NCBI RefSeq assembly: GCF_963921235.1 | Contig: NC_086097.1 | Coordinates: forward strand, 17,670,001-17,734,000 | Reading direction: 5' to 3' | Source of the DNA: Mobula hypostoma | Lineage: Eukaryota | Length of the DNA: 64,000 nucleotides | Shown: piece by piece, positions 12,151-59,882 of the stretch | How the letters are laid out: each line of letters starts with the position of its first letter | Position numbering within the stretch: the first letter of the stretch is position 1 | The notes under the pieces: model-generated | What the model was told of the DNA's origin: nothing | Database searches by the model: none | Seen by the model: the letters and a program-made list of their open reading frames with translations, nothing else | Position numbers and translations under genes: made by a program

Positions 12151-12460
12151 GAAGAAAGTCTGAGAATCGGAGCGGGAGTGCGGAGGAAGCCATTTTTGAA
12201 TTTTTCGGGTTTTTTTTCCATTGGCGTTCAGAGAGGCGGGACTGCGCAGGCGTGTGACGTTGGGCAATGAACCGCAGAAGATTTAAAAGGACAGAAATCC
12301 TGCTTCGGGTTTAATTCGTGGAAAGAAGTCTGAGAATCATAGCAGGAGTGCGGAGGAAGCCATTTTTGAATTTTTCGGTTTTTTTTCCATCGGCGTTCAA
12401 AGAGGCAGAACTGCGCAGGCGTGTGACGTCGGGCAGTGAAGCGCGGAAGATTTAAAAGGA
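12151..12460 (+). promoter_or_regulatory. Tandem 170-bp-period duplication in the CpG-rich CR1 5' UTR (putative internal promoter)
   Basis: 12151-12290 repeats at 12321-12460. Each copy carries tgcgcaggcg (NRF1-like) and tgacgt (CRE-like). Confidence 0.55.
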
Positions 12461-15400
12461 ACAGAGCCTCATACAGCGGGCAGCGTAGTTTGCGGGCAGC
12501 AGAGTGAGCCGGGAGCAGAGTGAAGGCTTAAGGGCTTCGGCTCAACGGGCTTAGGCGGAAATGGACGAGGCGAGGAAGGTGTGGTATTCATTTTTTGTTG
12601 TTATTTGAGGAGAGGGGCAGTATGAGTGTGAGGGCAGTTTGTTGTTCTCGGTGCTGGATGTGGGATGCCCTGGAGTCTCCAAGCCTCCCGGATGTCCACA
12701 TCTGTGCCAGGTGCGCCGAGATGCAGCTCCTAAGGGACCGCGTTAGGGAACTGGAGCTGCAGCTCGATGATCTTCGTCTGGTCAGGGAGGATGAGGAGTC
12801 GATAGAGAGGAGTTACAGGCAGGTGGTCACACTAGGGCCACGGGAGGCAGACAAGTGGGTCACGGTTAGGAGGGGGAAGGGGAAGAGTCAGGTAATAGAG
12901 AGTACCTCGGTGGCTGTGCCCCTTGACAATAGGTTTGAGTACTGTTGCGGGGGATAGCTTACCTGGGGGAAGCGACAGTGGCCGTGCCTCCGGCACAGAG
13001 TCCAGCCCTGTAGCTCAGAAGGGAAGGGAAGAGGACGGCAGTTGTAATAGGGGACTCGATAGTAAGGGGGTCAGATAGGCATTTCTGTGGACGCAGTCCA
13101 GAGACCCAGATGGTAGTTTGCCTCCCTGGTGCCAGGGTCCGGGATATTTCTGATCGCATCCAAGATATCCTGAAGTGGGAGGGTGAGGAGCCAGAGGTCG
13201 TGGTACATATAGGTACCAATGACATAGGTAGGAAAAGGGAAGAGGTCCTGAAAGGAGAATATAGGGAGTTAGGAAGGGAGTTGAGAAAAAGGACCGCAAT
13301 GGTAGTAATCTTGGAATTACTGCCTGTGCCACTCGACAGTGAGAGTAGGAATGCAATGAGGTGGAGGATAAATGCGTGGCTGAGGGATTGGAGCAGGGGG
13401 CAGGGATTCAAGTTTTTGGATCATTGGGACCTCTTTTGGCGCAGGTACGACCTGTTCAAAAAGGACGGGTTACACTTGAATCCTAGGGGGACCAATATCC
13501 TGGCGGGGAGATTTGCGAGGGCTACTGAGGTGACTTTAAACTAGAATGCTTGGCGGGGGGTGGGAATCAAATTAAAGAGACTAGGAGAGAGGAGGTTAGT
13601 TCACAACAGGGGGATGGGAACAAGTGCAGAGAGACAGAGGGGTGTAAAATGAAGGTAGAAGCAAAAAGTAGTAAGGTGAAAAGTAAAAGTGGTAGGCCGG
13701 CAATTCCAGGGCAAAAATCAAAAAGGGCCACTTTTCAACATAATTGTATAAAGGCTAAGAGTGTTGTAAAAGCGAGCCTGAAGGCTTTGTGTGTCAATGC
13801 AAGGTGCATTCGTAACAAGGTGGATAAATTAAAAGTGCAGATTGTTATTAATGAATATGATATAGTTAGGATCACAGAGACATGGCTCCAGGATGACCAG
13901 GGATGGGAGCTCAACATTCAGGGATATTCAATATTCAGGAGGGATAGACATGAAAGAAAAGGAGGTGGTTAGAGAGGAGATTAACGCAATAGAAAGGAAA
14001 GACATTAGCCGGGAGGATGTGGAATCGATATGGGTAGAGCTGCGTAACACTAAGGGGCAGAAAACGCTGGTGGGAGTTGTGTACAGGCCACCTAACAGTA
14101 GTAGTGAGGTTGGGGATGGTATTAAACAGGAAATTAGAAATGCGTGCAATAAAGAAACAGCAGTTATAATGGGTGACTTCAATCTACATAGAGATTGGGT
14201 GAACCAAATTGGTAAAGGTGCTGAGGAAGAGGATTTCTTGGAATGTATGCGGGATGGTTTTTTGAACCAACATGTCGAGGAACCAACTAGAGAGCAGGCT
14301 ATTCTAGACTGGGTATTGAGCAACGAGGAAGGGTTAATTAGTAATCTTGTCGTGAGAGGCCCCTTGGGTAAGAGTGACCAAAATATGGTGGAATTCTTTA
14401 TTAAGATGGAGAGTGACATAGTTAATTCAGAAACAAAGGTTCTGAACTTAAAGAAGCGTAACTTTGAAGGTATGAGACGTGAATTAGCTAAGATAGACTG
14501 CCAAATGACACTTAAAGGGTTGACGGTGGATATGCAATGGCAAGCATTTAAAGATCGCATGGATGAACTACAACAATTGTTCATCCCAGTTTGGCAAAAG
14601 AATAAATCAAGGAAGGTAGTGCACCAGTGGCTGACAAGGGAAATTAGGGATAGTATCAATTCCAAAGAAGAAGCATACAAATTAGCCAGAGAAAGTGGCT
14701 CACCTGAGGACTGGAAGAAATTCAGAGTCCAGCAGAGGAGGACAAAGGGCTTAATTAGGAAGGGGAAAAAAGATTATGAGAGAAAACTGGCAGGGAACAT
14801 AAAAACGGACTGTAAAAGCTTTTATAGATATGTGAAAAGAAAAAGATTGGTTAAGACAAATGTAGGTCCCCTACAGACAGAAACAGGTGAATTGATTATG
14901 GGGAGCAAGGACATGGCAGACCAATTGAATAACTACTTTGGTTCTGTCTTCACTAAGGAGGACATAAATAATCTTCTGGAAATAGTAGGGGACAGAAGGT
15001 CCAGTGAGATGGAGGAACTGAGGGATATACATGTTAGTAGGGAAGTGGTGTTAGGTAAATTAAAGGGATTAAAGGCAGATAAATCCCTAGGGCCGGATGG
15101 TCTGCATCCCAGAGTGCTTAAGGAAGTAGTCCAAGAAATAGTGGTGATAATTTTTCAAAACTCTTTAGATTCTGGACTAGTTCCTGAGGATTGGAGGGTG
15201 GCTAATGTAACCCCACTTTTTTAAAAAGGAGGGAGAGAGAAACCAGGGAATTATAGACCGGTTAGCCTGACATCGGTGGTGGGGAAAATGCTAGAGTCAG
15301 TTATCAAAGATGTAATAACAGCACATTTGGAAAGCGGTGAAATCATCGGACAAAGTCAGCTTGGAATTGTGAAAGGAAAATCATGTCTGATGAATCTCAT

Positions 15401-16667
15401 AGAATTTTTTGAGGATGTAACTAGTAGAGTGGATAGGGGAGAACCAGTGGATGTGGTATATTTGGATTTTCAAAAGGCTTTTGACAAGGTCCCACACGGG
15501 AGATTAGTGTGCAAACTTAAAGCACACGGTATTGGGGGTAAGGTATTGATGTGGATAGAGAATTGGTTGGCAGACAGGAAGCAAAGAGTGGGAAAAACGG
15601 GACCTTTTCAGAATGGCAGGCAGTGACTAGTGGGGTACCGCAAGGCTCAGTGCTGGGACCCCAGTTGTTTACAATATATATTAATGACTTAGATGAGGGA
15701 ATTAAATGCAGCATCTCCAAGTTTGCGGATGACACGAAGCTGGGCGGCAGTGTTAGCTGTGAGGAGGATGCTAAGAGGATGGAAGGTGACTTGGATAGGT
15801 TAGGTGAGTGGGCAAATTTATGGCAGATGCAATTTAATGTGGATAAATGTGAGGTTATCCACTTTGGTGGCAAAAACAGGAAAATGGATTATTATCTGAA
15901 TGGTGGCCGATTAGGAAAAGGGGAGGTGCAATGAGACCTGGGTGTCATTATACACCAGTCATTGAAAGTGGGCATGCAGGTACAGCAGGCGGTGAAAAAG
16001 GCAAATGGTATGCTGGCATTCATAGCAAGAGGATTCGAGTACAGGAGCAGGGAGGTACTACTACAGTTGTAGAAGGCCTTGGTGAGACCACACCTGGAGT
16101 ATTGTGTGCAGTTTTGGTCCCCTAATCTGAGGAAAGACATCCTTGCCATAGAGGGAGTACAAAGAAGGTTCACCAGATTGATTCCTGGGATGGCAGGACT
16201 TTCATATGATGAAAGACTGGATTGACTAGGCTTATACTCGTTGGAATTTAGAAGATTGAGGGGAGATCTTATTGAAACATATAAAATCCTAAAGGGATTG
16301 GACAGGCTAGATGCAGGAACATTGTTCTCGATATGGGGAAGTCCAGAACGAGGGGTCACAGTTTGAGGATAAAGGGGAAGCCTTTTAGGACCGAGATTAG
16401 GAAAAACTACTTCACACAGAGAGTGGTGAATCTGTGGAATTCTCTGCCACAGGAAACAGTTGAGGCCAGTTCATTGGCTATATTTAAGAGGGAGTTAGAT
16501 ATGGCCCTTGTGGCTAAAGGGATCGGGGGGTATGGGGGTAAGGCTGGTACAGGGTTCTGAGTTGGATGATCAGCCGTGAACATACTGAATGGTGGTGCAG
16601 ACTCGAAGGGCTGAATGGCCTACTCCTGCACCTATTTTCTATGTTTCTATGTTTCTACATTTCTATA
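12151..16667 (+). mobile_element. Near full-length CR1 LINE, inactivated. ORF1 has a Zn finger, coiled coil and SGNH esterase; ORF2 has APE and RT.
   Basis: ORF1 CSRCWMW..CARC, GDSIVRG, VVHIGTND, DGLHLN. ORF2 [43 protein letters not shown]. Several frameshifts and stops (about 12950, 13970, 15222, 15600, 15932). (ttctatgt)n tail. Confidence 0.97.
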
Positions 16668-40273: not shown

Positions 40274-40396
40274 ACATTAACGAATGCCTGATGTCAGGAA
40301 TGTGTCAAAATGCTAACTGTCTGAATACCAGAGGTAGCTACAGATGTACCTGTAATCCAGGATATATGTTGGATACTTCCAGGAGCCATTGCATCT
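40274..40396 (+). CDS. LTBP2: LTBP2 exon C, calcium-binding [44 protein letters not shown](S)
   Basis: Acceptor cccag| and donor T|gtaagt. 123 nt, phase 1-1. Fits the cbEGF consensus (DINEC, CxNTxGSY, 6 Cys). Confidence 0.96.
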
Positions 40397-41504
40397 GTAA
40401 GTAATAATCTGATTATTTTCTGCTGCTTAAAATCTGTTACATATCAGGATACAATTAAAGACAACATTTATTAGGTTCTTCATATTCAGTTATGATATCT
40501 TTTATGTTAAATAGACAACTATGAGAAAACCAGAATATCAGCGAGTCAGAATGTAGGTGAGAACATGCTTGCTGGCATTGCACCTGTTTTAGGAAGCGTT
40601 TTTAGATTTCAGTTGGGAGTCTGAGCTCCGATGTACATTAAAATATCACCACTAGTTCTTCAAAGGCAATAACAGATGGGCAAATAATCCCTTACTAATG
40701 ATGTTCATATTCTGAAAAAAATTATGAACAAGCTAAAAGCTTTTAAAGTCTGGCATGTTGAAACTCTAAGCATCCTAACTGTGTGGGTGCTACAGAAAGT
40801 AGTGTTGCTGCTTCAAATCTCCACTGAGTTGGAACTTCTGTTGTCTATGTGGAATTTGCATAAACGGACTCAGGGTCTTGGATTATATTATATTTTTTTG
40901 TGTGACTGTACATTTACTGCTATCTTATATGTGCTATATGGGCCTTGTGCTGTGTATGAATGTTGGTACCTTGTTTTTCACCTTGGCCCTGGAGGAACAC
41001 TGTTTCGTTTGACTATATTTATGGATATTCGTGTATGTGTGAATGACAATTAAACTTGAACTAGTCATTTTCCATCTAGTTACAACTCCTTCAATATGAT
41101 CACTGATAGCTGTGGGTCAAATACATGGACAATTATACGTAAAGACTCGAAAATTGCCAACATCTGGTTATATTACTATCCATTACTCTAGATCTAGTAT
41201 TTAACATTAATAAAAACAATTTTGGATAATTATAAATATTCTAAGCACTGAGAACTATCATGCATATACTCTGAAGCTACTGTTAGCCTGCAAATGGAAG
41301 TTAATCAATTATTTTAGTCCTTAGATACTTGGCACATAAATGACAACAGGTTAATATCGTAGTGCTCCTCATTGCAAGTCCAAATCTAAGAAAAGATGCA
41401 AATTGATGCTCAGGATACTGGAGTCCTGTTTTCCTTCCGATACCTCCATTTGTTCTTGCTCATTCAAATTCTAAAGAGAGCTTTCGACACATTAGTGTTC
41501 ATAA

Positions 41505-42090
41505 ATCAGAACACTGAGTACAGGAGCTGAGATGTTGAAGCTGTATAAGATGTTGCTGAGGCCTCATTTGGAGTATTGTGTGCAGTACTTTCAATAAACT
41601 TAAAAGAGTACAGAGAAAATGAACGAGGATATTGCCAGTGCCTGAGGACTTGAGTTATAGGAAAGGTTGAATTGGCTCGGATATATATTCCCTGGACCTC
41701 AGAGGAATGAGGGGAGATTTGATAGTGGTATACAAAATAATGAGGTGTATAGATAAGATTAAGTTGCTTGCAGGTTTTTTTCCCATCAGGTTGGGTGAGG
41801 TAAGAACGAAAGGTCATAGGTTTAGGGTGAAAGAGAAAATATTAAAGGGGAATTTGTGGAGGAACAACTTAACCATAGGATGGTGCAAGTATGGAACAAT
41901 TTACCAGCAGAAGTGGTAGATGCAAATTCAATTGTAATATTAAAGAGAAGTTTGGATAGGTATATGGATGAAAGAGGTATAATGGGCTATAGTCTGGATG
42001 CAAATAGATGGGACTCTGCAGAAGATGACTGGGATGGACAAGATGGACTGAAGGGTCTGTTTCTATGCTGTGACTCTTTAACTCTGTATT
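41505..42090 (+). mobile_element. CR1 3' fragment
   Basis: Peptides MRGDLIVVYKIMR and VWNNLPAEVV. Confidence 0.85.
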
Positions 42091-42489
42091 CTCCACTTAT
42101 CCTACTTATTTTTCTATTGTAATCCCCTGATGTTGACACATGTCTTAACTGATGTTCATTTTGAAAGTGTTTTACTGTGCATTGTTACCTCAATAGAGTA
42201 ACCAAAGGCTGCTTCTAGTTTGTGTGGTTCAAAATGAAATCTCAATTTTTTCAGATCCTTTGGGTGGGTGCAGGTGTGGTGGGAGGTCAGGTGAGAGCTA
42301 GGTTGTGGTAAGGAACACGGCCTTCAAAATTTAACACCTAAACACAAGACAAAGACCAAGAGGGTAGCTTCCACTTTCAAAAACAATGCTTGCCACTTTT
42401 GAAAATCAGAGAATGAAAGTGAAGGCATTTTCAAAAATTCAGCAACTCAGAAATATTTCTGATATTCTCCCTCGTCTAATTTAAAAGTA

Positions 42490-43500
42490 TTATGCCTAGA
42501 AATCAGACCAGACCTATTTATATTCAGTGAAATGTTGAAAATTGCAACTATAGAAGGAGTCTCCTTATTGTCAGGCAGAATGAAAGTCATCATCAGGCTT
42601 CTCTCCAACCATCTTCTCCCTGTACCAAAGTGAAGCTTTCCAAATTGCAGTGTGGATTTTCTTTTATCAAGAGCCACAGTGGTCATGATCTTAAGCACAT
42701 AAAAGCTCACAAAAATTGCAAGGACTAGCACCAGACAACATCTTCACTAAAGCCTTTGGCTCTATCATGAAAACCTATCGAGCCCCATCATCAAATTTAG
42801 CTGCCATCTCCATCTTATATTTGCTGCATAATGATATGCAAGCCATGATACTACCCAACAAGTTCAGTAAAAGAAAAATCTCCATGATGACTGGTGTCTA
42901 ACAAGGCTGCATCATTGTGGCAACATTTTTTAAAATCTTTCTTTCTGTGGTGTAGCATGCCATCTCAGACGCTACCCTTGGACAATAAAGGTTCATGATA
43001 AGACTCCAAAAAAAACGCGTTTTAGATCTTGGGAGCCAGCTTCCAATGAAGGCAGGCATTGATAATAAAATTCATCACAGTCTTTAATATGCCAGCACAG
43101 GCTCTTTGCAATTGAGGGAAAGAGATAAAAGCTTCAGACTTGGCTCAGAACTTATGGTGTACTCAGCAGCAGTGGTCCCTGCCCTTGTATGTGCTTCTTA
43201 GGATCTGATCTACTTATATCCAGCTGTCTGAAGCACTGGAAAAATACAAGTATGTGCTATTGCTGCAACATCTTTCAAATTTGCTGGAAAGATAAACCAT
43301 TCAATGTCAGTATTCTCTCCCAGGCCAATATCTATTGTACTGAGTCTCTGTTTACTTTTAATGGACTTACATTTTTTCACTCTTGTGCCTGACAGTAAAC
43401 TCAGGAAGCACAAACTCTATTCCAATCTCTCTGAGGAGATTACAAAACAGAGGAAAAAATTTGAAGCATTTGCACAATATTTTCTTTAAAATGTAACACC
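42490..43500 (+). mobile_element. Old RTE-clade LINE fragment
   Basis: TGV*QGCIIVATFF (RT motif GVKQGC) and decayed downstream RTE-like coding sequence. Confidence 0.55.
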
Positions 43501-43608
43501 CCCTTTATCTATCTCCTGCAAGATGGTGCCGGTGAAAAATGACAACACCGTGCAGGCAGCTTATAATACTTCTATATCTCTATATATCTATATATAGACT
43601 ATATATAG

Positions 43609-43612
<4 letters not shown>

Positions 43613-43652
<40 letters not shown>
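43613..43652. repeat. (AC)n microsatellite, about 20 units, abutting the Tc1 terminus
   Basis: Read directly from the sequence. Confidence 0.95.
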
Positions 43653-43656
<4 letters not shown>

Positions 43657-45083
43657 GAAGTCAGAAGTTTACATACACTTTGTAAGTATTTGGTGGCATT
43701 GCCTTTAATTTGTTTAACTTGGGTCAAACATTGTAGCCTTCCACAAGCTTCTCACAGTAAGTTGCTGGAACTTTGTTCCATTCCTCCAGACAGAACTGGT
43801 GTAACTGAATCAGGTTTGTAGGCCTCCTTGCTCGCACACGCTTTTTCAGTTCTACCCACAAACTTTCTATTGGATTGAGGTCAGGGCTTTGTGACTCCAA
43901 TACCTTGACTTTGTTGTCCTTAAGCAATTTTGCCACAACTTTGGAGGTATGCTTGGGGTCATTGTCCATTTGGAAGACTCATTTGCGACCAAGCTTTAAC
44001 TTCCTGGCTGATGTCTTGAGATGTTGCTTCAATATATCCACATAATTTTCCTTCCTCATGATGCCATCTATTTTGTGAAGTGCACCAGTCCCTCCTGCAG
44101 CAAAACACCCCACAACATGATGCTGCCACCCCCATGCTTCACGGTTGGGATGGTGTTCTTCGGCTTGCAAGCGTCACCCTTTTTCCTCCAAACATAACGA
44201 TGGTCATTATGGCCAAACAGTTCAATTTTTGTTTCATCAGACCAGAGGACATTTCTCCAAAAAGTAAGATCTTTGTCCCCATGTGCACTTGCAAACTGTA
44301 GTCTGGCTTTTTTATGGCAGTTTTGGAGCAGTGGCTTCTTCCTTGCTGAGCAGCCTTTCAGGTTATGTCGCTATAGGACTCATTTTACTGTGGATATAGA
44401 TACTTGTCTACCTGTTTCCTCCAGCATCTTCAAAAGGTCCTTTGCTGTTGTTCTGGAATTGATCTGCACCTTTTGTGCCAAAGTACGTTCATCTCTGGGA
44501 GACAGAATGCGTCTCCCTCCTGAGCGTTATGACGGCTGCGTGGTCCCATGGTGCTTATACTTGCATACTACTGTTAGTACAGATGAACGTGGCACCTTCA
44601 GGTGTTTGGAAATTGCTCCCAAGCAGTTGAACCAGACTTGACATAATTTTCTGACCTCAATCCGACAGAAAATTTGTGGGCAGAACTGAAAAAGCATGTG
44701 CGAGCAAGGAGGCCTACAAACCTGACTCAGTTAGACCAGTTTTGTTTGGAGGAATGGAACAAGATTCCAGCAACTTACTGTGAGAAGCTTGTGGAAGGTA
44801 CCCAAAACATTTGACCCAAGTTAAACAATTTAAAGGCACTGCTACCAAATACTAACAAAGTGTATGTAAACTTCTGACCCACTGGGAAAGTGATGAAAGA
44901 AATAAAAGCTGAAATAAATCATTCTCGTTACTATTATTCTGACATTTCACATTCTTAAAATAAAGTAGTGATCCTAACTGACCTACAACAGGGAATGGTT
45001 TTGAGGATTAAATGTCAGGAATTGTGAAAAACTGAGTTTAAATGTATTTGGCTAAGGTGTATGTAAACTTCTGACTTCAACTG
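43652..45083 (-). mobile_element. Tc1/mariner IR/DR transposon of the Sleeping Beauty family, rearranged. Transposase pseudogene on minus (about 44640-43686).
   Basis: Termini cagttgaagtcagaagtttacatacac and gtgtatgtaaacttctgacttcaactg|TA. Peptides VLWSDETKIELFG, TVKHGGGSIM, MDNDPKHTSKVVAK and SPDLNPIE (DD34E-type). Confidence 0.96.
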
Positions 45084-45329
45084 TACTTCTTTTGAACTAT
45101 TTTTACTGCAATCTGCAGTCTGTAGTTTCCCTTTAAGTAACATCGTTTTGAACTGTCTTAATGAACTAGGGATTTCACGATCTTTTGAAGGACCCAGTGG
45201 GCTTAACTCTCGTGAATGTAGGTATGTCATCATTAAATGGTTGAAGGTACATCGCCATGACTGTAAAAGAGGGAGGAGGGAAAGATTCCAAGCAGACCAA
45301 AACACGGGGTATGAAACTTCCTCTACCAG

Positions 45330-45800
45330 TTTAATGGTTGCTTGTCTTTGGTATCCAGCAATGACATTTAGATTTCTGCAGTCCTTTTGTGTGTCCATAG
45401 GTGGCTCCTGTGTCCAAGTTGTGAACGACATAGATGTCCCCAATAAGGACATGAAACATGTGCTGGATCTGGAAGTGGAGCTGCAGCTATTGCTTTACTT
45501 CTTTGTCAGGCACCGGTTAGCACACGGCTTGCTAGCCACTCCGGTCTTGCGCACTCTGTTCCAGCCATTTTGGTACAAGCCCAACATGTGTAATGTTAGC
45601 TTTCATGCAATCTTTGAAATTCTTACAGGGCCTGACTTGATTCATCTTGCCTAGCAAAAGCCCGCTACTTATAGCTGCTTGGAGATTTGGGAATCCTTCA
45701 TGCATATGACATGCCCTGTCCACTAAAACTGTGATTTTGCAATCGTGGCCTCAACTCTCATGGTCCTTGCCCTGTTGAGGGCCTCTAGGTTTGTGACTAG
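45330..45800 (-). mobile_element. RTE-clade LINE 3' fragment
   Basis: Peptide RPCKNFKDCMKANI..LEQSAQDRSG, typical of the RTE C-terminus. Confidence 0.65.
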
Positions 45801-46669
45801 GTCCTACCACGAGATGCCATCTGCAAACAAGAAGCAACCTAACCTGATGCCTTTCAAATCATTGATGGGGATCCTCACAAAATTATTCAGAATCTTTCCC
45901 AACCAGAAGCCCTGAATGAACCATGAGATCCGCAATCTTGAGTGCCAGATCAGTGGCATTCAAATCCAGCAACCAAGTAAAAAACAAGTGGTCCAGGTAG
46001 GATCTTCAGAAAACCATCTCAGATGTGAGGTGGTAATTCCAGACCAAACGTAAATCTCTGGAAGAATCTTGGCAGCTGTGGCAGGGCTTGAAGGCTATCA
46101 CCTCCTTAAACAATGAAACCAAGCAACTTAAATGACGACAGGTTTTGTTCCCAGATGAGCTCAATGCCTTTTATGCTCACTTTGACTATCAAGACATGGA
46201 GGCACCTTCACGAACTTCCACAACTCTTGATGACCCTGTGATTTCAGTCTCTAAGGCTAATGTAAAAGCATCCTTCAGGAGAGCAAAACGATGGAAAGCA
46301 TCTGGCCTAGATGGGGTACCTGGCTGAGTACTAAAGACTTGTGCTGATCAACTGGCTGGAGTATTCGCTGATATCTATAGCCTCTCACTTTGGCAGTCTG
46401 AGCTACCCATCTGCTTCAAGCAGGCTTCAATTATACTGGTGCTTAAGAAGAACAAGGTAACCTGCCTCGATGACTGTCATCCACTAGCAATTATATCCAC
46501 TATGTTGAAGTGCTTTGAGAGGTTGATAATGAAACATATCAATTCCTGCTTGAGAAGCAATTTGGAAAAGCCATTTCATTGGCCATTCTTTCAACCCCGA
46601 AACATCTGGACAGTGAATATGAATACATCGTGCTCAACATTTCATGCTATCATCCCCTCAAAACTAATC

Positions 46670-49600
46670 TTTCTTTTTATATCTTTTTATTGAATTAGTA
46701 CACGAAGAGTAAAACATATAGTAACAAATACATTGTTAGGATATAAATATAAAAGTAATATTAATGCAAGAAAAAACAATACAATGTATGTTAATTACAG
46801 AATAACAAGGTAATATAATTGTATACTAATTTTTCATATATACCAACAGAACGGAAAAAAAAACAGAAAAAACCTACCATGCAACTAACCTAACAAAGCA
46901 AAGCAATGGGCTAACTAGGTATATACTAGACTTTGAACAATTAAACAATCGTGTCCTTAAACTCGACCTCCGCTAATAACAGATAAAATCCACGAAGGGA
47001 ATGTATATATGGTCAGAGAGAAAGAAATAGTTACATTAAATGAAAATATTGAATAAATGATCTCCAGGTCTGTTCAAATTTAACTGAAGTATCATAAAGA
47101 TTACTTCTGATTTTTTCCAAATTTGAACACAGTATCGTTTGAGAGAAAAAACGTAGTTGGGGCATTAATCTCCTTCCAATGTTGTAGAATACATCTTTTC
47201 GCCATTAAAGTAAGAAATGCAATCATTCTACGAGCTGAGGGGGGTAAGTTACTAGAAGTTTTAGGTAATCCAAAGATAGCAGTAATAGGATGGGGAGAAA
47301 TATCACTATTCAGAACTTTTGAGATAATATTAAAAATGTCTCTCCAAAAAGTTTCCAGACTAGGACAAGACCAAAACATGTGGGTCAAGGAAGCTACCTC
47401 CCCATGACATCTATCACAAAGAGGGTTAATTTGAGAGTAATAATGAGCTAATTTATCTTTAGACATATGTGCTCTATGGACAACTTTAAATTGAATTAAA
47501 GAGTGTTTGGAACAGATAGAGGAAGTATTAACAAGTTGTAAAATATAGGCCCAGTCCTCAGCCGGGATAGTAAGACCCAATTCCCTTTCCCAGTCAGTCC
47601 TAATCTTGTCGAATGGAGCTTTCCTAAATTTCATGATAATATTATAAAGAATAGCCGTTACACCTTTCTGAAATGGGTTAAGGTTAATGATAGCGTCTAA
47701 AATATTTGTGGGGGGTAACGCCAGAAAGGAAAAGAGTGTGGTATTTAGGAAATTTCTAACTTGCAAATATCTTATATAAAAAAAAATGTGTTCTTGGTAA
47801 ACTGTATTTATTAGGTAACTGTTCAAAAGACATAAGGGAGCCATCTGAAAATAAGTCAGAAAACCGTGATATACCATTAGTCTGCCAAATTTGAAAGGCA
47901 CGGTCCGTAGAGGGGGAGAGAAAAAATATATTACCTATAACAGGAATCGCTAGCACAAATTGATTAAGATAAAAAGATTTTCGGAATTGAAATCAGATAC
48001 GTAAGGTATGTTTAACTATTGGGTGCAAACCTGCTTATACCGTTTCAAATCGGAAGGAAGGGAAGATCCTAATATAGAGCCAAGTGCATAGCCTGAACAG
48101 AATGTAATTCCAATACTACCCATTTAGGAATGGATGGTGTATCTTGGTCAAGTAACCAAAATTTCATGTGTCGAATATTAATTGCCCAGTAATAAAATCT
48201 AAAGTTAGGTAATGCCAAGCCTCCATCTCTCTTAGCTTTCTGTAGATGTATTTTACCCAACCTCGGGTTTTTATTTTGCCAAATAAATGAAGAGATTCTA
48301 GAGTCTACTTTATCAAAAAAGGATTTTGGAACAAAAATTGGTAATGCCTGAAATATATATAAAAATTTTGGCAGAATAAACATCTTAACAGCATTAATAC
48401 AACCAGTCAAAGTTAAATAAAGTGGAGACCATTTTAAGGAAAGTTGTGTGATATGGTCAATTAAGGGTAAATAATTAGCCTTAAATAAATCCTTATGTTT
48501 ACAGGTAATTCCCAAGATAGGACCAATGATTATTAACCGATCTAAATGGCAGGTTCTGATATAAGGGAACTTGCTTATTAATAGGGAAAAGTTCACTCTT
48601 ATTAACATTTAATTTGTATCCTGAAAAAAGATTAAATTGGGCTAATAAATCTAGAGCTGCTGGGATAGATTTTTGAGGATTAGAAATATATAAGAGTAAG
48701 TCATCAGCGTAAAGTGATACTATGAGACTTTAATCCACGAGTTATACCGATAACATTAGGAGATTCTCGAAGCAATTGCTAGTGGTTCTAATGCTATATC
48801 AAATAATAAAGGGCTCAGAGGACACCCTTGTCTGGTACCTCGAAATAGAGGGGAAAAAAAGGTGAGTTTTGAGTATTAGTACGAACTGACGCCATAGGAG
48901 AATGGTAAAACAATTTAATCCAGGATATAAGTTTCGGGCTGAAGTTAAACATTTCAAGCACCTTAAATAAGTAGGGCCATTCAACCCTGTCAAAGGCTTT
49001 CTCAGCGTCTAGGGAAATGACGCATTCAGCATCGGTTTGTGACAGGGTATAGACAATATTTAAACGTGTACGAATATTATAAAAAGAATAGCAATTCTTA
49101 ATAAAACCCGTTTGATCTTCCGAAATAATATAAGGAAGTGCTTTTTCTAGTCTATTTAAAAATCTTGGAGTCAACATTTAACAAGGATATTGGTCTATAA
49201 GATGCGCATTGAGCGGGGTCTTTATCCTTCTTTAATATTAAAAAAATCAATGCTCTATAAAAGGATTCTGGTAGATTACCAAGTTTTAGTGAGGCCTCCA
49301 AAACCCTGGTTAACCAGGGGACTAATGAGGGTGCAAAAGATTTTAAAAATTCCACGGTAAACCTATCAGGGCCAGGAGCTTTCCCCGAGTTCATAGAAAA
49401 AATAACATTCTTAATCTCATCAGTAGTGAAGGAAGTTTCTAACATAGAACATATATCGTGTGATATCTTAGGGAAGTCTAGGTTATCTAAAAAGTCACAC
49501 ATATGTTTAAAATCTCGTGGAGATTCTGATCGATATAAAGAGGAATAAAAATCAAAGGAGGATTGATTAATCTCAGCTTGATCAAATGTCAGTTGATCTT

Positions 49601-52118
49601 TTTGATTATAAATCTGATAATTTGAAGTTTATTGGAGTTGGTCTTCAACCCATTAGCCAACAGTTTACCAACTTTGTCACTATGTATATAAAATTCACTT
49701 CTTGTCTTCATTAATTGATTTGCAATAGAGGATGAAAGTAATAAACTGTGTTCCATTTGAAGTTCAGTTGTTTGTTTATACAGCTCAGAAGGAGCTGTAG
49801 CATATTTCTTATCTATTTCCTAAATCTTGTCCACAAGAGCAAGTTCTTCCTTCTTCAACCTTTTCCTCAAAGCAGCAGAGTACGATATAATCTGGCCACA
49901 AATATAAGCTTTGGAGGTATCCCAAAGGGTGTTCAAGGATATATCCTCTGTACTGTTAATTGTAAAAAAAGAGCAATCTGTTCACTCATGAAGTTAACAA
50001 AATCCAAGTCCTGAAGCAACAGCGAATTAAAACGCCATTGTCTAGTGTTATGAGCATTGGCCAATAATTTAATAGAAAACTTAAGTGGAGCATGGTCTGA
50101 AATGGTTATAGAGTCATATTCACATTTAACTACTGAGGAAATAAGACGAGAGTCAATAACTTGAGTAAGAGTGATGAACATGTGTTAAAAAAAAAGTCTT
50201 GGGGATGTAAAAACCGCCAAATGTCCGTCGACCCCGAATCTGAGAGAAATGAATTAATCAAGGGTGCAGATTTATTGGGTGCAGTCCGTATAGGGGCCAA
50301 ACGGTCCAATAGTGGGGATAAACAAGTATTAAGATCTCCGCCCCAGATTAGTGTAAACTCATTCAAATTTGGAAACATTAAATAAAGATATATAAAATTC
50401 CGGACAGTCTGAGTTTGGAGCATAAGTGTTAACCAGAACTACCTTTTTATTAAAAAGTAAACCACTAACCAGTAAAAATCTACCATTCGGATCAGAGATA
50501 ATATCCTGTTGCACAAATATAATTGAGGGATCTATGAAATAGGAACTCCTCTAACTTTTACATTAGAATTCGAGTGGTATTGCTAATCCTTCCAGAACTT
50601 AAAAAAACATAATCTGTCCCACCTCCGCACATGGGTCTCTTGTACAACTAAAATATGTGCTTTAAGTCTCTGGAATACTTTGAAGATTTTTTCCTTTTAA
50701 TTGGTTGATTAAGACCGTTAGATTCCAAGAGACAAAATTAACAGTAGAATTCATAACCCCGAAAGTCAACCCTCAAATAAAGGGAGGATTGACAATAGAT
50801 TCAACCCACGAACCCGGAAAGGGAACAGAGTAAACAGGAGATAACGAGAAAGACGACGCAAAAAATACTTCAATAATATATGAGTAGCCCAAGAAGAAAA
50901 AAAAAACTATAAAGTGAAGCCCCCCCCCGGCCCCGTAACCCCAAAGCTAAATCTAGAATAGACTAGCCAGATAGAAGCAAGAACTAAATCTACCCCCATG
51001 ATTTCCAATAAACGCTCAGTAAAAAAGTGTATATATAAAAAAGATCAACTAAAGTTGAAAAACAGAAGAGTGAAAAAATCAAGAAGTACACCAACTAAAA
51101 CGAAAAAGATATAATACAAAGAAGAAAATATATATATATATTTATCCCCAGGGAAGAAGAAGAAATGACGTAGTTAAAAAAAGAGTTTGGTAACCATATT
51201 AGTTAAACAAAAAAAAATTCTGCCCTCAGATAGAGCAAAAAAAAAGAAAAAGGAAAATAAAACCAGACAGATTAAACAGATTAGCACCCTCCAATCAGGC
51301 ACTGATAATTTAACAGTGCAATTAGGATGTTGAAGGTGAGAGTTGATCCAGGTAGCTCTGGGCATCCGACGGAGAGTTGAAAAAACGGGGAGACCCATCA
51401 GACATTCGGATCCTCAAACGTGAGGGATATAGCAGAACTGGCTTTAAATCCATCTTGTAGAATTCCGCCATCACATCTATAACGAACACGTTGGACGCAA
51501 ACCTGTTTGCTAAAGTCCTCCACCAATCGAAAGCGGAGATCTGAAAAATCAATGTAGCCTTTAGGTCGAGTAGCCTTTAGCAAAACGGAACAACTTTTCC
51601 TCGTCTTGAAAATAATAAAATCGTATAATAACATGCCGAGGCTCGCCTGACTTAGACGAATACGATGGAACTCTATGAGCCCTGTCCAATAGTGGTGGTT
51701 GATCAGGAAACAAGGTGGGAAATTAGTCTTTTAAAAGTTGAGAGAAAATCTTAATAGGGTCTTCAGATTCCACGCCATCTTTGAGTCCGATAATTCTTAT
51801 ATTCTGACGACGCGTTCTGCATTCTAAATCAGAATTTTTAAAGGTAAGGAATTCACGTTGTTTCTTCATTGTGCCGGGTCAACAACAGGAGTGGGGTCGG
51901 TAACTTTCAGTCTGACAGGAGGTTTGCCGTTTTTCCCGTTCTTAGACATACCGGACCTTAAAAGCATCCAAATATATAATGACAATCAACTCCGAGGTAT
52001 TGTAAAGGGCGGTGCCTTAAAAGTTAGCTTAAATGTAGCTGATCATAGGATAAAGATCAGAGGTAATGGAGCGGATCTAAAACACAACCTCACACCATGA
52101 GCACCACTGGAAGTCTCC
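46670..52118 (-). mobile_element. Full-length L1-clade LINE (about 5.45 kb), inactivated. ORF1 about 51949-51322; ORF2 from about 50754.
   Basis: ORF1 LECRTRRQNIRIIGL..LDRAHR. ORF2 GGDLN, ISDHAP, GKAPGPD, YRPISLLNVD, SLDAEKAFDRVEW, YADD and CDRC..HMFWSC. AATAAA and an A-rich tail. TSD caaaactaatc (46659-46669) and caacactaatc (52118-52128). Confidence 0.95.
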
Positions 52119-53112
52119 AACACTAATCAATGAGATTCTAGACCCAAGCCCCAATGCTTCCTTGTACAACTGGGTCCTCGATTTCCTCACTTGCAGATCT
52201 TAGTTGGTTCAGACTAGCAACAAAATCTCCTCAATAATTTCCATCTGCACAGGTGTACCAGATGGCTGAGTACATAGCCCCTTTGTCTATTCACTTTATA
52301 CTTATGACTGTGATGCTAAGCACAGCTTCAATGCCATATTTAAGTTTGCTGACAACACCTCTATCATTCGTTGAATCAAATGTGGTCACGAATCAGCATG
52401 AAGCGGGGAAATTGAAAATCTGGTCGAGTAGTGCTGCAACAACATCTCACTCAATGTCAGGAACTGATTATGGACTTCAGGAGGAGGAAAGTGGAGGTCT
52501 ATGAGCTAGTCCTCATCAGGGGATCACAGGTGGAGAGGTCAGCAGTTTTAAATTCACTGGTGTTTTCATTTCAGAGGATCTGTGCTGGGTCCAGCACATA
52601 AGTACCATTGCAAAGAAAGCAAAGGCAGTGCATCTACTTCCTTAGAAGTTTGTGAAGATTTAGCCTGTCATCTGAAACTTTGACAACCTTCTAATAGATA
52701 TGCAGTGGAAAGTATATTGACCAGTTGCATCACAGCTTGATATGGAAACATCAAAGCCTTTGAACGGAAAAGTGTACAAAATGTAATGGATACAGCCCAG
52801 TCCATAATGGGTAACGCCCTCCCCATCATTGAGCACATTTGCATGGAGCACTGTCACAGAAAAGCATCATGCATCATCGAGGGCCCCCACCATCCAGGCC
52901 ACGCTATCTTCTCGTCATTGTAATCAGGAAGGAAATACAGTTGCCTCTGGACCCACATCACCAGGTTCAGGAACAGTTATTATCTCTCAGCCATCAAGCC
53001 CTTGAACAAGAAGGGATAACTGCACTCAACTTCACTCACCCCTTCACTGAACTGTTCCCATAACCTATGGACTCACTTTTAAGGACTCTTCATCTCATGT
53101 TCTCGATATTTA

Positions 53113-56100
53113 GAACATAGAATAGTACAGCACAGTACAGGCCCTTCAGCCCACAATGTTGTGCCGACCCTCAAACCATGCCTCCCATATAAGCCCCCAA
53201 CTTAAATTCCTCCATATACCTCTCCAGTAGTCTCTTAAACTTCACTAGTGTATCTGCCTCCACCACTGACTCAGGCAGTGCAATCCACGCACCAACCACT
53301 CTCTGAGTAAAAAACCTTCCTCTAATATCCCCTTTGAATTTCCCACACCTTACCTTAAAGCCATGTCCTCTTGTATTGAGCAGTGGTGCCCTGGGGAAGA
53401 GGTGCTGGCTATCCACTCTATCTATTCCTCTTATTATCTTGTACACCTCTATCATGTCTCCTCTCATCCTCCTCCTCTCCAAAGAGTAAAGCCCTAGCTC
53501 CCTTAATCTCTGATCATAATGCATACTCTCCAAACCAGGCAGCATCCTGGTAAATTTCCTCTGTACCCTTTCCAATGCTTCCACATCCTTCCTATAGTGA
53601 GGCGACCAGAACTGGACACAGTACTCCAAGTGTGGTCTAACCAGAGTTTTATAGAGCTACATCATTACATCGCGACTCTTAAACTCTATCCCTCGACTTA
53701 TGAAAGCTAACACCCCATAAGCTTTCTTAACTACCCTATCCACCTGTGAGACAACTTTCAGGGATCGGTGGACATGTACCCACAGATCCCTCTGCTCCTC
53801 CACACTACCAAGTATCCTGCCATTTACTTTGTACTCTGCCTTGGAGTTTGACCTTCCAAAGTGTACCACCTCACACTTCTCCGGGTTGAACTCCATCTGC
53901 CACTTCTCAGCCCACTTCTGCATCCTGTCAATGTCTCTCTGCAATCTTTGACAATCCTCTACACTATCTACAACACCACCAACCTTTGTCTCATCTGCAA
54001 ACTTGCCAGCCACCCTTCTACCCCCACATCCAGGTCGTTAATAAAAATCACGATAAGTAGAGGACCCAGAACAGATCCTTGTGGGACACCACTAGTCACA
54101 ATCCTCCAATCTGAATGTACTCCCTCCACCACCACCCTCTGCCTTCTGCAGGCAAGCCAATTCTGAATCCACCTGGACAAACTTCCCTGGATCCCATGCC
54201 TTCTGACTTTCTGAATAAGCCTACCATGTGGAACCTTGTCAAATGCCTTACTAAAATCCATATAGCTCACATTCACTGCACTACCCTCATCTATATGCCT
54301 GGTCACCTCCTCAAAGAACCCTATCAGGCTTGTTAGATACGATCTGCCCTTCACAAAGCCATGCTGCCTGTCCCTGATCAGACCATGATTCTCTAAATGC
54401 CCATAGATCCTATCTCTAAGAATCTTTTCCAACAGCTTTCCCACCACAGACGTAAGGCTCACTGGTCTATAATTACCCAGACTATCCCTACTACCTTTTT
54501 TGAGCAAGGGGACAACATTCGCCTCCCTGCAATCCTCTGGTACCATTCCCGTTGACAAGGAGGACATAAAGATCCTAGCCAGAGGCTCAGCAATCTCTTC
54601 CCTCGCCTCGTGGAGCAGCCTGGCGAATATTCTGTCAGGCCCCAGGGACTTATCCATCCTAATGTATTTTAACAACTCCAACACCTCCTACACCTCCTCT
54701 CCCTTAATATCAACATGCTCCAGAACATCAACCTCACTCATATTGTCCTCACCATCATCAAGTTCCCTCTCATTGGTGAATACTGAAGAGAAGTATTCAT
54801 TGAGGACCTTGCTCACTTCCACAGCCTCCAGGCACATCTTCCCACCTTTATCTCTAATCGGTCCTACTTTCACTCCTGTCATCCTTTTTTTTCTTCACAT
54901 AATTGAAGAATGCCTTGGGGTTTTCCTTGACCCTACTCGCTAAGGCCTTCTCATGCCCCCTTCTTGCTCTTCTCAGCCCCTTCTTAAGCTCCTTTCTTGC
55001 TTCCCTATATTCCTCAATAGGCCCATCTGATCCTTGCTTCCTAAACCTCATGTATGCTGCCTTCTTCCACCTGACTAGATTTTCCACCTTACTTGTCACC
55101 CATGGTTCCTTTACCCTACCATTCTTTATCTTCCTCACCGGGACAAATTTATCCCTAACAGCCTGCGAGAGATCTCTAAACATCGACCACATGTCCATAG
55201 TACATTTCCCTGCAAAAACATCATCCCAATTCACACCCGCAAGTTCTAGCCTTATAGCCTCATAATTTGCCATTCCTTAATTAAAAATTTTCCTGTCGTC
55301 TCTGCTTCTATCCTTTTCCATGATAATGCTAAAGGCCAGGGTGCAGTGGTCACTGTCCCCCAGATGCTCACCCACTGAGAGATCTGTGACCTGACTCAGT
55401 TCATTACCTAGTACTAGATCTAGTATGGCATTCCCCCTAGTCGGCCTGTCCACATACTGTGGCAGGAATCCATCCTGGACACACTTAACAAACTCTGCCC
55501 CATCTAAACCCTTGGAACTATTCAGGTGCCAATCAATATTAGGGAAGTTAAAGTCACCCATGATAACAACCCTGTTATTTTTGCACCTTTCCAAAATCTG
55601 CCTCCCAATCTGCTCCTCTGTATCTCTGCTGCTACCAGGGGGCCTATAGAATACCCCCAGTAGAGTAACTGCTTCCTTCCTGTTCCTGACTTCCACCCAT
55701 ATTGACTCAAAAGAGGATCCTGCTACATTACCCACCCTTTCTGTAGCTGTAATAGTATCCCTGACCAGTAATGCCACCCCTCCTCCCCTTTTTCCACCCT
55801 CTCTATCCCTTTTAAAGCACTGAAATCCTGGAATATTGAGAATCCATTCCTGCCCTGGTGCCAGCCAAGTCTCTGTAATGGCCACTACATCATAATTCCA
55901 TGTATGTATCCAAACTCTCAGTTCATCACCTTTGTTCCTGATGCTTCTTGCATTGAGGTACACACATTTCAGTCCTTCTACCTTACTGTCTTTACACCAT
56001 TTATCCTGCTTCTCTTTCCTCAAAGCCTCTCTATATGTTAGATCTGGCTTTACCCCATGCACTTCTTTCACTGCTCTATCACTCTGGGTCCCATCCCCCT

Positions 56101-57710
56101 TGCAAATTAGTTTAAACCCTCCCGAACCATGCTAGCAAACCTACCTGCAAGGATATTGCTCCCCCTCGAGTTCAGGTGCAACCCATCCAATCTGTACAAG
56201 TCCCACCTTCCCCAAAAAAGATCCCAATGATCCAAAAATCTAAAACCCTGCTCCCTGCACCAACTCCTCAGCCACGCATTCAACTGCCATCTCCTCCAGT
56301 TTTTACCATCACTGTCACGTAGCACTGGCAGCAATCCTGAGAACACCACCCTTGAGGTCCTGTTCTTCAGCCTTCTGCCTAGTTCCCGAAACACTCACTT
56401 CAGGACCTCATCCCTCTTCCTGCCTATGTCATTGGTCCCAACATGTATCATGACTTCTGGTTGCTTTCCCTGTCGTACCAGGATGTCGTGCACCCGGTCA
56501 GAGACATCCTGGACCCTGGCACCTGGGAGGCAACAAACCATGCAGGTGTCCTTCTCACGTCCACAAAATCTCCTGTCTGCTCCCCTGACTATAGAGTCTC
56601 CAATGACGACAGCTCTCCTCTTCTCCGTCCCACCCTTCTGCACCACCGGGTCAGACTCAGTGCCGGAGGCCCTGCCACCGTGGCTCACATCTGGTCGGTC
56701 GTCCCCGCCAACAGTATCCAGGACGGTGTACTTATTATTCAGGGGAATGGCTATAGGGGTGCTCTGCACTACCTGTCTGCTCACCTTCGCTTTCCCCCCC
56801 CTCTGACTGTCACCCAACGACCCACTTCCGACAGCCTAGGTGTGACTACCTCCCTGTAGCTCTCATCTATGTCTGCCTCATTCTCCCTTATGAGTCGAAG
56901 GTCATCTAGCTGCTGCTCCAGATTCCTTACAAGCTCTTCCAGATCGCCCAGCCGTATGCACTTCTGGCAGATGTGACTCTGCGGGACTGGGGCGTCCCCC
57001 AAGACTGCCACATCTCACATGAGAGGCACATCACCGTCTCAGGAGACATTGTAAAGACTAATTGCGAGCAAGCTTGTCCTCCGCCTCTTCTCGTCTAAGC
57101 CTCTCGAGTCAAAGCCTCAAAGCTCCACTCCTTCACTGGCCACTTTCCACAGGCTGCTTCGCTTGAGCTATCCTTCTATTTATCTGTCTGTATGTATCTT
57201 GTTTTTACGGCGGTTGGCATCCGGCTTAATGGTGCATTACCGCCACCCTCTGCTCCAGAATGTGCACTAGACATACATTCTAAATCCCTTCACCCAATCG
57301 CGCGCCCGCACGCACACACACACACACACACAAACATATATATATATATATACAAACCTACACTTCACCCTCCCATCGTTGACCATCCTAGTATCCTATT
57401 CCTGTTTATTCATCATATTCTATAAAAAAAACCCTTGTACTCCTCTTCTATTTATCTGTTTGAGCTTTTCAAAATGCTTGGTCACCTGACCTTGACTGCC
57501 CAATCAGCTGCTTTCAGCTGAGTCTGAGCTCTTGAAATCTTGATTGTCAATCAATAGCTTTCTGCTGATCTATTCAAATCTTGATTGACTTGATTGCACA
57601 GACCAACTGCCAAAACTGCCAGAATCTCTTGAATCAAAGCCTCAAAGCTCCACTCCTTCACTGGCCCACTTGCTTACTGGCCGCTTTCCGCTTTAAATTA
57701 AATATTAAGA
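53113..57710 (-). mobile_element. Second near full-length CR1 LINE (different subfamily), inactivated
   Basis: ORF1 HICQKC, GDSIVRG, HVGTND, DGLHLN. ORF2 [35 protein letters not shown]. Tail at about 53111-53125. Candidate TSD atattta at 53106-53112 and 57711-57717. Confidence 0.95.
57188..57444 (-). mobile_element. 257-bp truncated LINE 3' end (possibly Nimb/I-like) in the CR1 5' UTR, with a 15-bp TSD
   Basis: cttctatttatctgt at 57173-57187 and 57445-57459. Terminal stem-loop ggcggt..gcatc..ggtgc..accgcc. The clade call is from memory and tentative. Confidence 0.75.
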
Positions 57711-58699
57711 ATATTTAATTCTTATTTATTTCTATTATTATTTCCTATTTTTCCTTTGGTATTTGCACAGTCATTGTCTTTTGCATGTTGGTTGTTTGTC
57801 CAGTGTGTTGAGTGAGATCTTTCATGAATTCTATTGTGTTTCTTGTATTTATTATAAATGCCCGTAAGAAAATGTATGTCTGGTTTGTATATGGTGACGT
57901 ACATGTACTTTAAAGATAAATTTATTTTGAATTTTGAACTTGTGGAAATCCACACCACTCAAGATGGAGAAGAAGCATCCAGGCTGGCATTGAAATACTC
58001 AAGGCTATGCCTCGGCAACATACAGAAGCCTTCTGAAAGATGTGGAAGAAATGCGTGTTATTACCTGCACCTTCAACCATTCTGTCACTCACCTCCTGTT
58101 CACCAGAGGGAGAGTCTGCACATTGCCTCTCTAGGTAACTTAGAATCCAGAAGATTGGAGTGGAGTTAAGTAATCCTCAGTCCTGTGGGACTGCCTGAAA
58201 AGAAGCAACTTTAGTTTCTTTCCACATTCTAAAGACCTATGCATTGGTAAGCTGCTGTAAACTACCCCAAAGAATGGCAGGAGAATTGCAAGGAGAGAGT
58301 TTGGAGAGTTAATAAGCATGGCAAGAGAATAAGTTAGAGGAAAATGTCCTGTGTGCTTTTCAATTCATTTTCTTTTGGAATCTGGAGCCCAAGCACAATT
58401 CAGAACTTCCATTGTGGTGCTCATATATTGGTTGGATTCTTCCTGTGTTGCAACAGGATCTGTGATATCTACCTTAGCTTAATTCATGGATATTACGTAC
58501 AGTACAGGAAAATAACCAATGGCACCAGGACAAACCAACCAAGGGTACAGGGAGATTTTAAATAATAGGATGATAAAGGGAAGCTGCTGACAATCACGGG
58601 TGGCAATGGCTGGTACTGAATGGTTGTTCACAATCTAGAAGATGAACAGCAGCATTCCTGTAGGACTGGTGTTAAGAATAGAAGCCACAATTTTAAAAT

Positions 58700-59500
58700 T
58701 TGCAGTCATCTAAGCAGTAAAGATAATGATAAATTGCAACAGGATATAAACAATCTGGTAAATGAAGGGACACAAGGCAAGTTAATGTAAAGTAATGCAG
58801 TGTGGATGCATTTTGAGAAAATGAATTTCACAAGACAGAACAGGACAAAGGACACTGTTCCAAGCTGGCTGAAGGAGCAAAGGGACTGAGGGAATGAATA
58901 GCATAGTGCAGGACAGGTTGAGAAAGCAATTAAGGCATACACAATTCTGTGATTTATCAACAGAGGCAGAGTATTAATGCCAACTCTTTATAGAATACTT
59001 TTGGCTTCAATTGATGTGTTCTTTCATTTCTGGTTACTTCAATAAAGAGGAAATCCAGAAAGAATTTACAAGAATCAACCTGAGATGAGAGGTTACTTTA
59101 CAAGGATATCTCGGGTACTAAATCTGTTTTCCATAGAGAAGGTTATCGGGAGATCTAATATATGTCATCTTGAATCTTTGTAAACTTCAACAAAAAGTAG
59201 AGGCACTACCATGCTTTCTTCACTATTACACTTATATGCTGAACCAAGGACAGGTCCTCTGAAATGATAACACCAAGACATGTACGGTTGCTGACCTTCT
59301 CCACCTTTGATCCCCTGATGAGGACTGGCTCATGGACCTCTGGTTTCCTCCTCCTGAAAACAACAATCAGCTCTTTGGTCATGCTGACTTTGAGGTAGAG
59401 GTTGTTGTTGTTGTTGTCGTGGCACCACTCAGCCAGATTTTCAATCTCCTTCCTCTATGCTGATTCGTCACTACTTTTGATTCAACCGACAACAGGACAT
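58700..59500. mobile_element. Old CR1 (+, to about 59160) and Rex1-like (-, about 59165-59495) fragments
   Basis: Similar to other copies in the window (caacaggatataaacaatctgg; ccaaggacaggtcctctgaaat). Confidence 0.65.
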
Positions 59501-59717
59501 TCCAAGAGTCTGTCCAGATTAGTCACCATTACTATATAGGTAAACACAGTATACCAGTATATTTTAAGTGATATTGTCTGTAAATTATTTATCATAAATG
59601 TAAAAAAAAAAGTTTAAAATTCTAAATAAGTTGAGATGCTGGAGATAAGTTATCTTATGTCCTACTCTTCTTTAAATCAAATTTTAAAGTAATTTTGTAA
59701 TTTGATTTTCTTTACAG

Positions 59718-59882
59718 CGGACAAGGCGGTTTCTGCTGAACTGGGACCCTGTTTCAGATCAGTGTCCAATGGGAACTGTTCTCTGCCTCTCTCTCAGCAA
59801 ATTGCAAAGCAGATTTGTTGTTGTAGCCGTGTGGGCAAAGGATGGGGTAAAAACTGTGAAAAGTGTCCACTTCCTGGCTCAG
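59718..59882 (+). CDS. LTBP2: LTBP2 exon D, first TB (8-Cys) domain: [55 protein letters not shown]
   Basis: Acceptor tttacag| and donor CAG|gtaatg. 165 nt, phase 1-1. SDKA and [11 protein letters not shown] match LTBP2; LTBP1 has KQLCCCSVGK (recalled). Confidence 0.96.

Follow-up and report, generated by a model that had tools for sequence, protein, structure and literature searches.

The window (the whole 64-kb stretch of Mobula hypostoma DNA analysed here) carries LTBP2 exons on its plus strand, two of which, an exon with an EGF-like domain (40274–40396; 41 of 41 residues identical to Pristis) and the next one downstream (59718–59882), bound an intron at 40397–59717. An element assigned below to the Sleeping Beauty (SB) clade of Tc1 transposons occupies 43652–45083, and its placement inside an LTBP2 intron, proposed in a preliminary description made from the sequence alone, was borne out. 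That description had also taken the host for a cartilaginous fish. Summed over five consecutive LTBP2 exons (plus strand, 210 residues), identity was highest to sawfish (Pristis, 196), followed by Narcine (186), Leucoraja (183), four sharks (172–174), gar (142) and whitefish (Coregonus, 136), identifying the host more narrowly as a batoid; the matches included no myliobatiform sequence, and the Pristiophorus row (142/210) was left out because the fifth exon is missing from its isoform. A single-exon query matched ten LTBP proteins, eight of them from sharks and rays (95–100%) and two from bony fishes (83–90%). No tRNA was found in the window.

TBLASTN with a 340-residue relative aligned codons 23–340 on the minus strand, from 44628 down to 43686, and codons 274–340 a second time on the plus strand, at 44653–44852. 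The preliminary description had read the locus as a decayed full-length transposon with a nearly whole transposase and a complete right IR/DR. Both parts are there, as are the three peptides and the IR strings it quoted, but the anatomy was misread: the transposase (codons 23–340 of 340) lies on the minus strand and runs away from the right IR/DR to which it had been joined.

From left to right, the flank (43612–43651) consists of a TA (43612–43613) and a (CA)n run that extends over the element's first two bases. The left terminus (43652–43681, plus strand) holds one outer-type transposase site (core 43660–43678), fused directly to the flank of a right inner site, with no spacer, no second site and no left-IR sequence. 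The decayed transposase (43686–44640, minus strand, codons about 20–340) ends at this terminus. At its other side lies the rearrangement junction (44641–44654), where the antisense of the ORF start is joined to the sense ORF at codon 273, leading into a second transposase copy (44651–44855, plus strand; codons 273–340 and the stop codon) that is an inverted repeat of 43660–43884. The complete right IR/DR follows at 44860–45083 on the plus strand (inner core 44860–44878, spacer, outer core 45057–45075, terminus); a repeat search confirmed its extent and the 197-bp distance between its direct repeats. The right target-site TA (45084–45085) abuts the right end, and the left TA, separated from the terminus by 19 CA units, was likely displaced via slippage of the terminal CA.

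The two arms align as inverted repeats over 228 nt (blastn, 90%) and differ at 17 of 224 sites, and the window contains the DR core at three positions (43660, 44860 and 45057), compared with 0.03 occurrences expected from 100 shuffles. Neither the left-IR spacer nor the 5′ UTR of L001, a full-length TA-bounded relative of 1639 bp from a metagenome locus, has a match in the window beyond the DR, and the start codon is absent. The left IR that characterises the SB clade, comprising a pair of direct repeats and the half-DR enhancer region, is missing. As the left IR was lost in the rearrangement, the element is a derivative rather than a canonical SB copy, and the inverted arms leave it with two outward-facing right ends, three transposase sites and no start codon. 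It is a 3′–3′ rearranged derivative, not a simple decayed full-length copy: its 5′ part is replaced by the inverted 3′ part, creating long TIRs with transposase homology, a feature of 3′–3′ rearranged non-autonomous lineages. Read in LTBP2 sense, 43652–44900 folds into a stem of ~225 bp at −580 kcal/mol, compared with −337 to −354 kcal/mol for eight shuffles.

The rearrangement junction at two Mobula genes

Two gene models of M. hypostoma, LACTB2 X2 (XP_062921089.1) and TTC33 X3 (XP_062905703.1), include an SB-derived exon. The one in TTC33 crosses the rearrangement junction: the C-terminal peptide of the model runs from the antisense of the transposase start through a short linker into the sense C-terminus. 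The window gives this linker in frame, identical in length and sequence, whereas the antisense of a normal SB continues differently. This second junction copy is a predicted peptide only, TTC33 and the window may share one assembly, and the junction loci number two. In the window, the junction is readable as a 9-nt deletion, possibly with 4 nt of microhomology. With one breakpoint at two genes suggesting a single origin and later spread, we regard the 3′–3′ form, judged from these sequences, as a probable case of an amplified non-autonomous family.

One alternative, which we consider unlikely, accepts the transfer but denies that the rearrangement was ever mobile as a unit; it would have arisen once in place, with the TTC33 copy produced by segmental duplication, gene conversion or a repeated hot-spot switch. 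Only two junction copies have been seen, as such an origin would have it, and clustered but independent breakpoints are described for Rpmar17 in the accessible part of PMC4678618. Moreover, SB is reported to favour its left IR, which is missing here, and, according to the accessible parts of reviews, to need all four sites for transposition, which would make a master with three sites a poor substrate (SB literature, available in part and cited collectively: PMC5224488, PMC7827188, PMC2198921). An origin in place does not, however, account well for a linker that agrees in length and sequence between loci whose host genes differ, nor for a window copy that ends exactly at both termini. In addition, a conserved Trp is replaced by Leu only in the window and the LACTB2 model among 20 rows covering the site, which suggests descent from a defective master and thus favours spread of the rearranged form.

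Structural parallels exist among mariners. In the accessible parts of the respective studies, Rpmar49 and Rpmar17 of Rhodnius prolixus (3′–3′; PMC4678618) and the Dromar MITEs of Drosophila (5′–5′; PMC4161770) are non-autonomous and have one end that is the inverted other, long TIRs with transposase sequence and a breakpoint common to copies. All of these are short-TIR DD34D mariners of insects, whereas the window element is a vertebrate IR/DR Tc1 that kept most of its ORF and carries an extra deletion between the direct repeats of one end. By analogy, it probably works like the 3′–3′ mariners without being one of them.

Family assignment and nearest relatives

Four in-frame stops (codons 56, 105, 108 and 239) interrupt the long arm, which has also lost 1, 6 and 4 nt in three deletions. 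All of the catalytic D, D and E are retained; owing to the 6-nt deletion, their spacing is 32 residues, and neither the TTC33 nor the LACTB2 model reaches the deleted site. SB100X was the sole PDB match for both open pieces (PDB 5cr4; E 3e-52 and 2e-39), and Pfam assigned a Tc3-type HTH and DDE_3. A metagenome scan revealed relatives at three loci (3 of 130 candidate stretches), including L001. The first 400 coding nt of L001 match, by eye, the SB-Huchuc row in the accessible part of Jia 2022 (PMC9777934), and L001 was therefore used as a salmonid-type SB. At its own locus, the full-length SB (30–1610) directly adjoins an apparent other element with ~50-nt inverted ends and a TA boundary. No match to the element was found in a plasmid collection and no SB relative in the genome-contig and viral-contig collections; the terminal motif was likewise absent from the genome contigs. 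Among viral sequences, the junction motif had one match, of 19 nt, which was rejected as due to chance.

The window and L001 are identical at 922 of 992 and 408 of 446 nt (~93%), and 275 of 307 transposase residues agree with L001, compared with 189–197 of 307 for outgroups. Coding identity between SB and SB-like elements is given as 61% in the accessible part of Jia 2022 (PMC9777934). The window element lies above the coding identity to members (about 80%) that marks the SB clade and has the right IR with inner and outer direct repeats that is typical of it; by sequence, it descends from this clade, which belongs to the IR/DR-type DD34E/Tc1 elements. In common with Sleeping Beauty and salmonid Tss-type IR/DR Tc1 elements (PMC9777934, available in part; SB100X), it shows, besides the 93% nucleotide identity across ORF and right IR, DR cores 197 bp apart, a putative TA target in an AT-rich repeat and, at a spacing of 32, the D, D and E residues. 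It differs in its host (batoids being absent from the accessible SB list of Jia 2022), in the loss of the left IR, half-DR enhancer region, 5′ UTR and start codon, in having two right ends and three sites instead of four, and in diagnostic residues of its own. TIRs of up to 415 bp are listed in Table 1 of the same paper, as far as accessible.

Compared against L001, the window has nine residues in common with the LACTB2 model and six to seven with the TTC33 model. In a tree of codons 55–258, window and LACTB2 grouped together (bootstrap 77) between a salmonid-type group and other teleost SB (83 and 92); a C-terminal tree was weak (support 40–47). The ray copies thus appear to form a branch of their own nested inside teleost SB diversity, with modest tree support. 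These trees were built without the elements of Heterotis and Pangasianodon, which we take to be the genera behind the labels SB-Hetnil (Heterotis niloticus) and SB-Panhyp (Pangasianodon hypophthalmus).

For these two and SB-Huchuc, the rows of Jia 2022 (PMC9777934, available in part) were compared by eye over the first 400 nt only. Of the 24 differences between window and L001 in coding positions 80–400, nine are shared by SB-Hetnil, seven by SB-Panhyp and none by SB-Huchuc. A non-CpG Arg-Gln codon pair present in the window was found, also by eye, in 2 of the 86 SB rows read from the accessible part, again those of SB-Hetnil and SB-Panhyp; several further sites common to the window and these rows are of CpG type and could be parallel.

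These sites bear on the donor. The preliminary description had implied a salmonid source by matching protein and IR to salmonid-derived SB, and the highest identities among alignable full-length sequences are indeed to salmonid-type elements. While the close similarity (93%) held up, a salmonid origin is doubtful: the diagnostic sites shared with SB-Hetnil and SB-Panhyp, the codon pair among them, are absent from the salmonid rows, several ray residues match the non-salmonid outgroup state, and the ray copies have their own branch. A salmonid donor is thus unlikely, and "salmonid-derived" describes the best-sampled relative only. As far as the sequences go, they point to a Heterotis/Pangasianodon-type relative as nearest kin.

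Embedding in the ray genome and horizontal transfer

That teleost DNA from prey, feed or laboratory contamination was assembled into the ray chromosome is very improbable, even though the sequencing runs richest in element words carry salmonid-type letters and are not from the host. A run search revealed 24 runs with 0.40–0.57 of the element's words, none near 1. In the four of these that were aligned, the element was deeply covered, with L001-type letters at the diagnostic sites, and the flank at 45137–45928 had no cover; not being host, these four runs say nothing on host or junction. The preliminary description had argued against contamination from the embedding of the element, an argument that gains from its precise ends inside an intron between consecutive LTBP2 exons. 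Furthermore, the window copy shares residues and the junction with Mobula models of two further genes; salmonid copies have neither.

Only a slim chance attaches to the structure being a re-inserted autointegration product. SB does autointegrate in cell culture (accessible part of PMC3952818), and a small change near the junction, at 44624–44631, makes an 8-nt match to the transposon's own terminus. Yet a transposon end abutting an internal TA is found at neither junction, 228 nt are present twice, and the 8-nt match, probably due to chance, is missing from the Mobula TTC33 copy, where the normal peptide is encoded.

Chondrichthyans evolve slowly, which might lend some plausibility to an element passed down vertically since the gnathostome ancestor and evolving unusually slowly. 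Against L001, dS of the long arm was 0.071 (binomial 95% range 0.04–0.12; dN 0.050; 309 codons) and that of the short arm 0.165 (66 codons). The non-coding right end is identical at 213 of 229 positions, its spacer at 167 of 178 (94%). In the accessible part of Zhang 2020 (PMC7070016), the ray–teleost split is placed at 473 My, for which the vertebrate rate of that study predicts a dS of ~2.9 and a six times lower one (0.5e-9 per site per year) still 0.47; both values, from borrowed or assumed rates, lie outside the range of the element. Between host LTBP2 and the teleost homologue, 35% of residues differ (136/210 identical), while the transposase, decay included, keeps 275/307. The earlier argument that such non-coding similarity is too high for vertical descent is thereby upheld. 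Although some vertically inherited DNA transposons are less diverged than genes over splits under 120 My (Zhang 2020, PMC7070016, accessible part), the low dS, the conserved spacer and the nesting of the ray copies within teleost SB diversity render vertical inheritance scarcely tenable. Horizontal acquisition of the element by the batoid lineage is, in our judgement, very likely.

Transfer criteria in the accessible part of Zhang 2020 (PMC7070016) comprise a TE dS under nearly all host-gene dS, at least five copies per lineage and a patchy distribution; the ray loci with SB sequence found here number at least three (the window, LACTB2 and TTC33). The accessible part of Jia 2022 (PMC9777934) lists 107 ray-finned fishes and one mollusc as carriers of the SB clade but no chondrichthyan, with only ZB-like elements in one chondrichthyan, and six guessed batoid abbreviations were absent from the part of its supplement available. 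Mobula was the only named chondrichthyan among the matches listed (120 of 2298; 120 of 134). Transfer from fish to ray is the simplest reading of direction.

Previously described Tc1 transfers among aquatic vertebrates (PMC7070016; lamprey–teleost, PMC3516227; both available in part) likewise show synonymous divergence far under expectation across splits of >450 My. Of four chondrichthyan names searched for in the accessible part of Zhang 2020 (PMC7070016), only Callorhinchus and Rhincodon were present, and the Tc1 group of the lamprey study is given, in the part available, as absent from cartilaginous fish (PMC3516227). Tc1/mariner elements account for 2.3% of ray and 0.14% of shark genomes according to the accessible part of PMC12361510, which does not mention horizontal transfer; nor do the accessible parts of preprints on batoid genomes mention Tc1. 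In the literature accessible to us, outside most subscription journals, Repbase and Dfam, we found no description of a ray SB or of an SB element with two right ends.

Proposed history and significance

Overall, we assign a probability of roughly 80% to the reading that the element is a dead SB-clade Tc1 with two right ends, whose lineage entered rays horizontally and whose rearranged form spread to several sites. An autonomous SB from a sub-branch also present in Heterotis and Pangasianodon would have invaded a ray ancestor, donated by a ray-finned fish or a shared vector, roughly 13–80 My ago, as estimated from arm divergence at assumed rates of 3.1e-9 to 0.5e-9; this guess leans high, because some of the arm differences may already have been present in the master. 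An inverted copy of the last 433 bp would, in one element, have taken the place of the left IR, the 5′ UTR and the first 11–19 codons, probably by template switching during repair of an excision gap, the mechanism proposed for rearranged Rhodnius elements in the accessible part of PMC4678618. The resulting master, without transposase but with ends still cleavable, may have been cut and pasted in trans into TA sites, spreading as a passenger of intact transposase. At one end, repeat-mediated deletion would have removed the 197 bp separating the direct repeats, an event that we place somewhat more readily in the window copy than in the master, and the window copy would then have decayed through substitutions and indels.

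Restoring the 197 bp between the direct repeats brings the element to 1629 bp, and a net 10 nt of indels to 1639 bp, the length of L001, which hints weakly at a master with both right ends complete. The master may have had four sites or three: length restoration slightly favours four, and three are permitted by one-site transposition, given that transposition in cell culture persisted at about 26% with an SB end trimmed to one outer-type site (as given in the accessible SB literature). A bolder scenario, to which we attach low odds, is that the three-site, two-right-end derivative became the main mobile form in rays and that the transposase hairpin of ~225 bp, carried into host pre-mRNA by intronic copies, acted as a small-RNA silencer that ended the invasion. 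Maize Mu killer offers the comparison for such a built-in silencer. Were this scenario true, the main mobile form would contradict the four-site and left-end rules from cell culture.

Both Tc1 horizontal transfer, well known among aquatic vertebrates, and 3′–3′ rearrangement are known processes, and the window copy itself is dead; the host range and the occurrence of this architecture in an IR/DR element appear to be unreported. With these findings, the natural occurrence of Sleeping Beauty, known as a gene-therapy vector, would reach beyond bony fishes to cartilaginous fishes, which diverged from them about 470 My ago. SB may also be one of the families responsible for the reported surplus of Tc1/mariner in rays and skates compared with sharks. 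If amplified in nature, an SB derivative lacking the left IR would test the end-recognition rules established in cell culture; insertions common to several rays could be used to date the transfer and as markers among rays.

Elsewhere in the window, a broken long LINE, presumably L1-like, with endonuclease- and reverse-transcriptase-like frames occupies 47101–52100 on the minus strand. Two further long LINE copies, which we take to be CR1-like, lie on opposite strands at 12228–16560 and 53171–56859, each with an esterase-like ORF1 and a broken ORF2.
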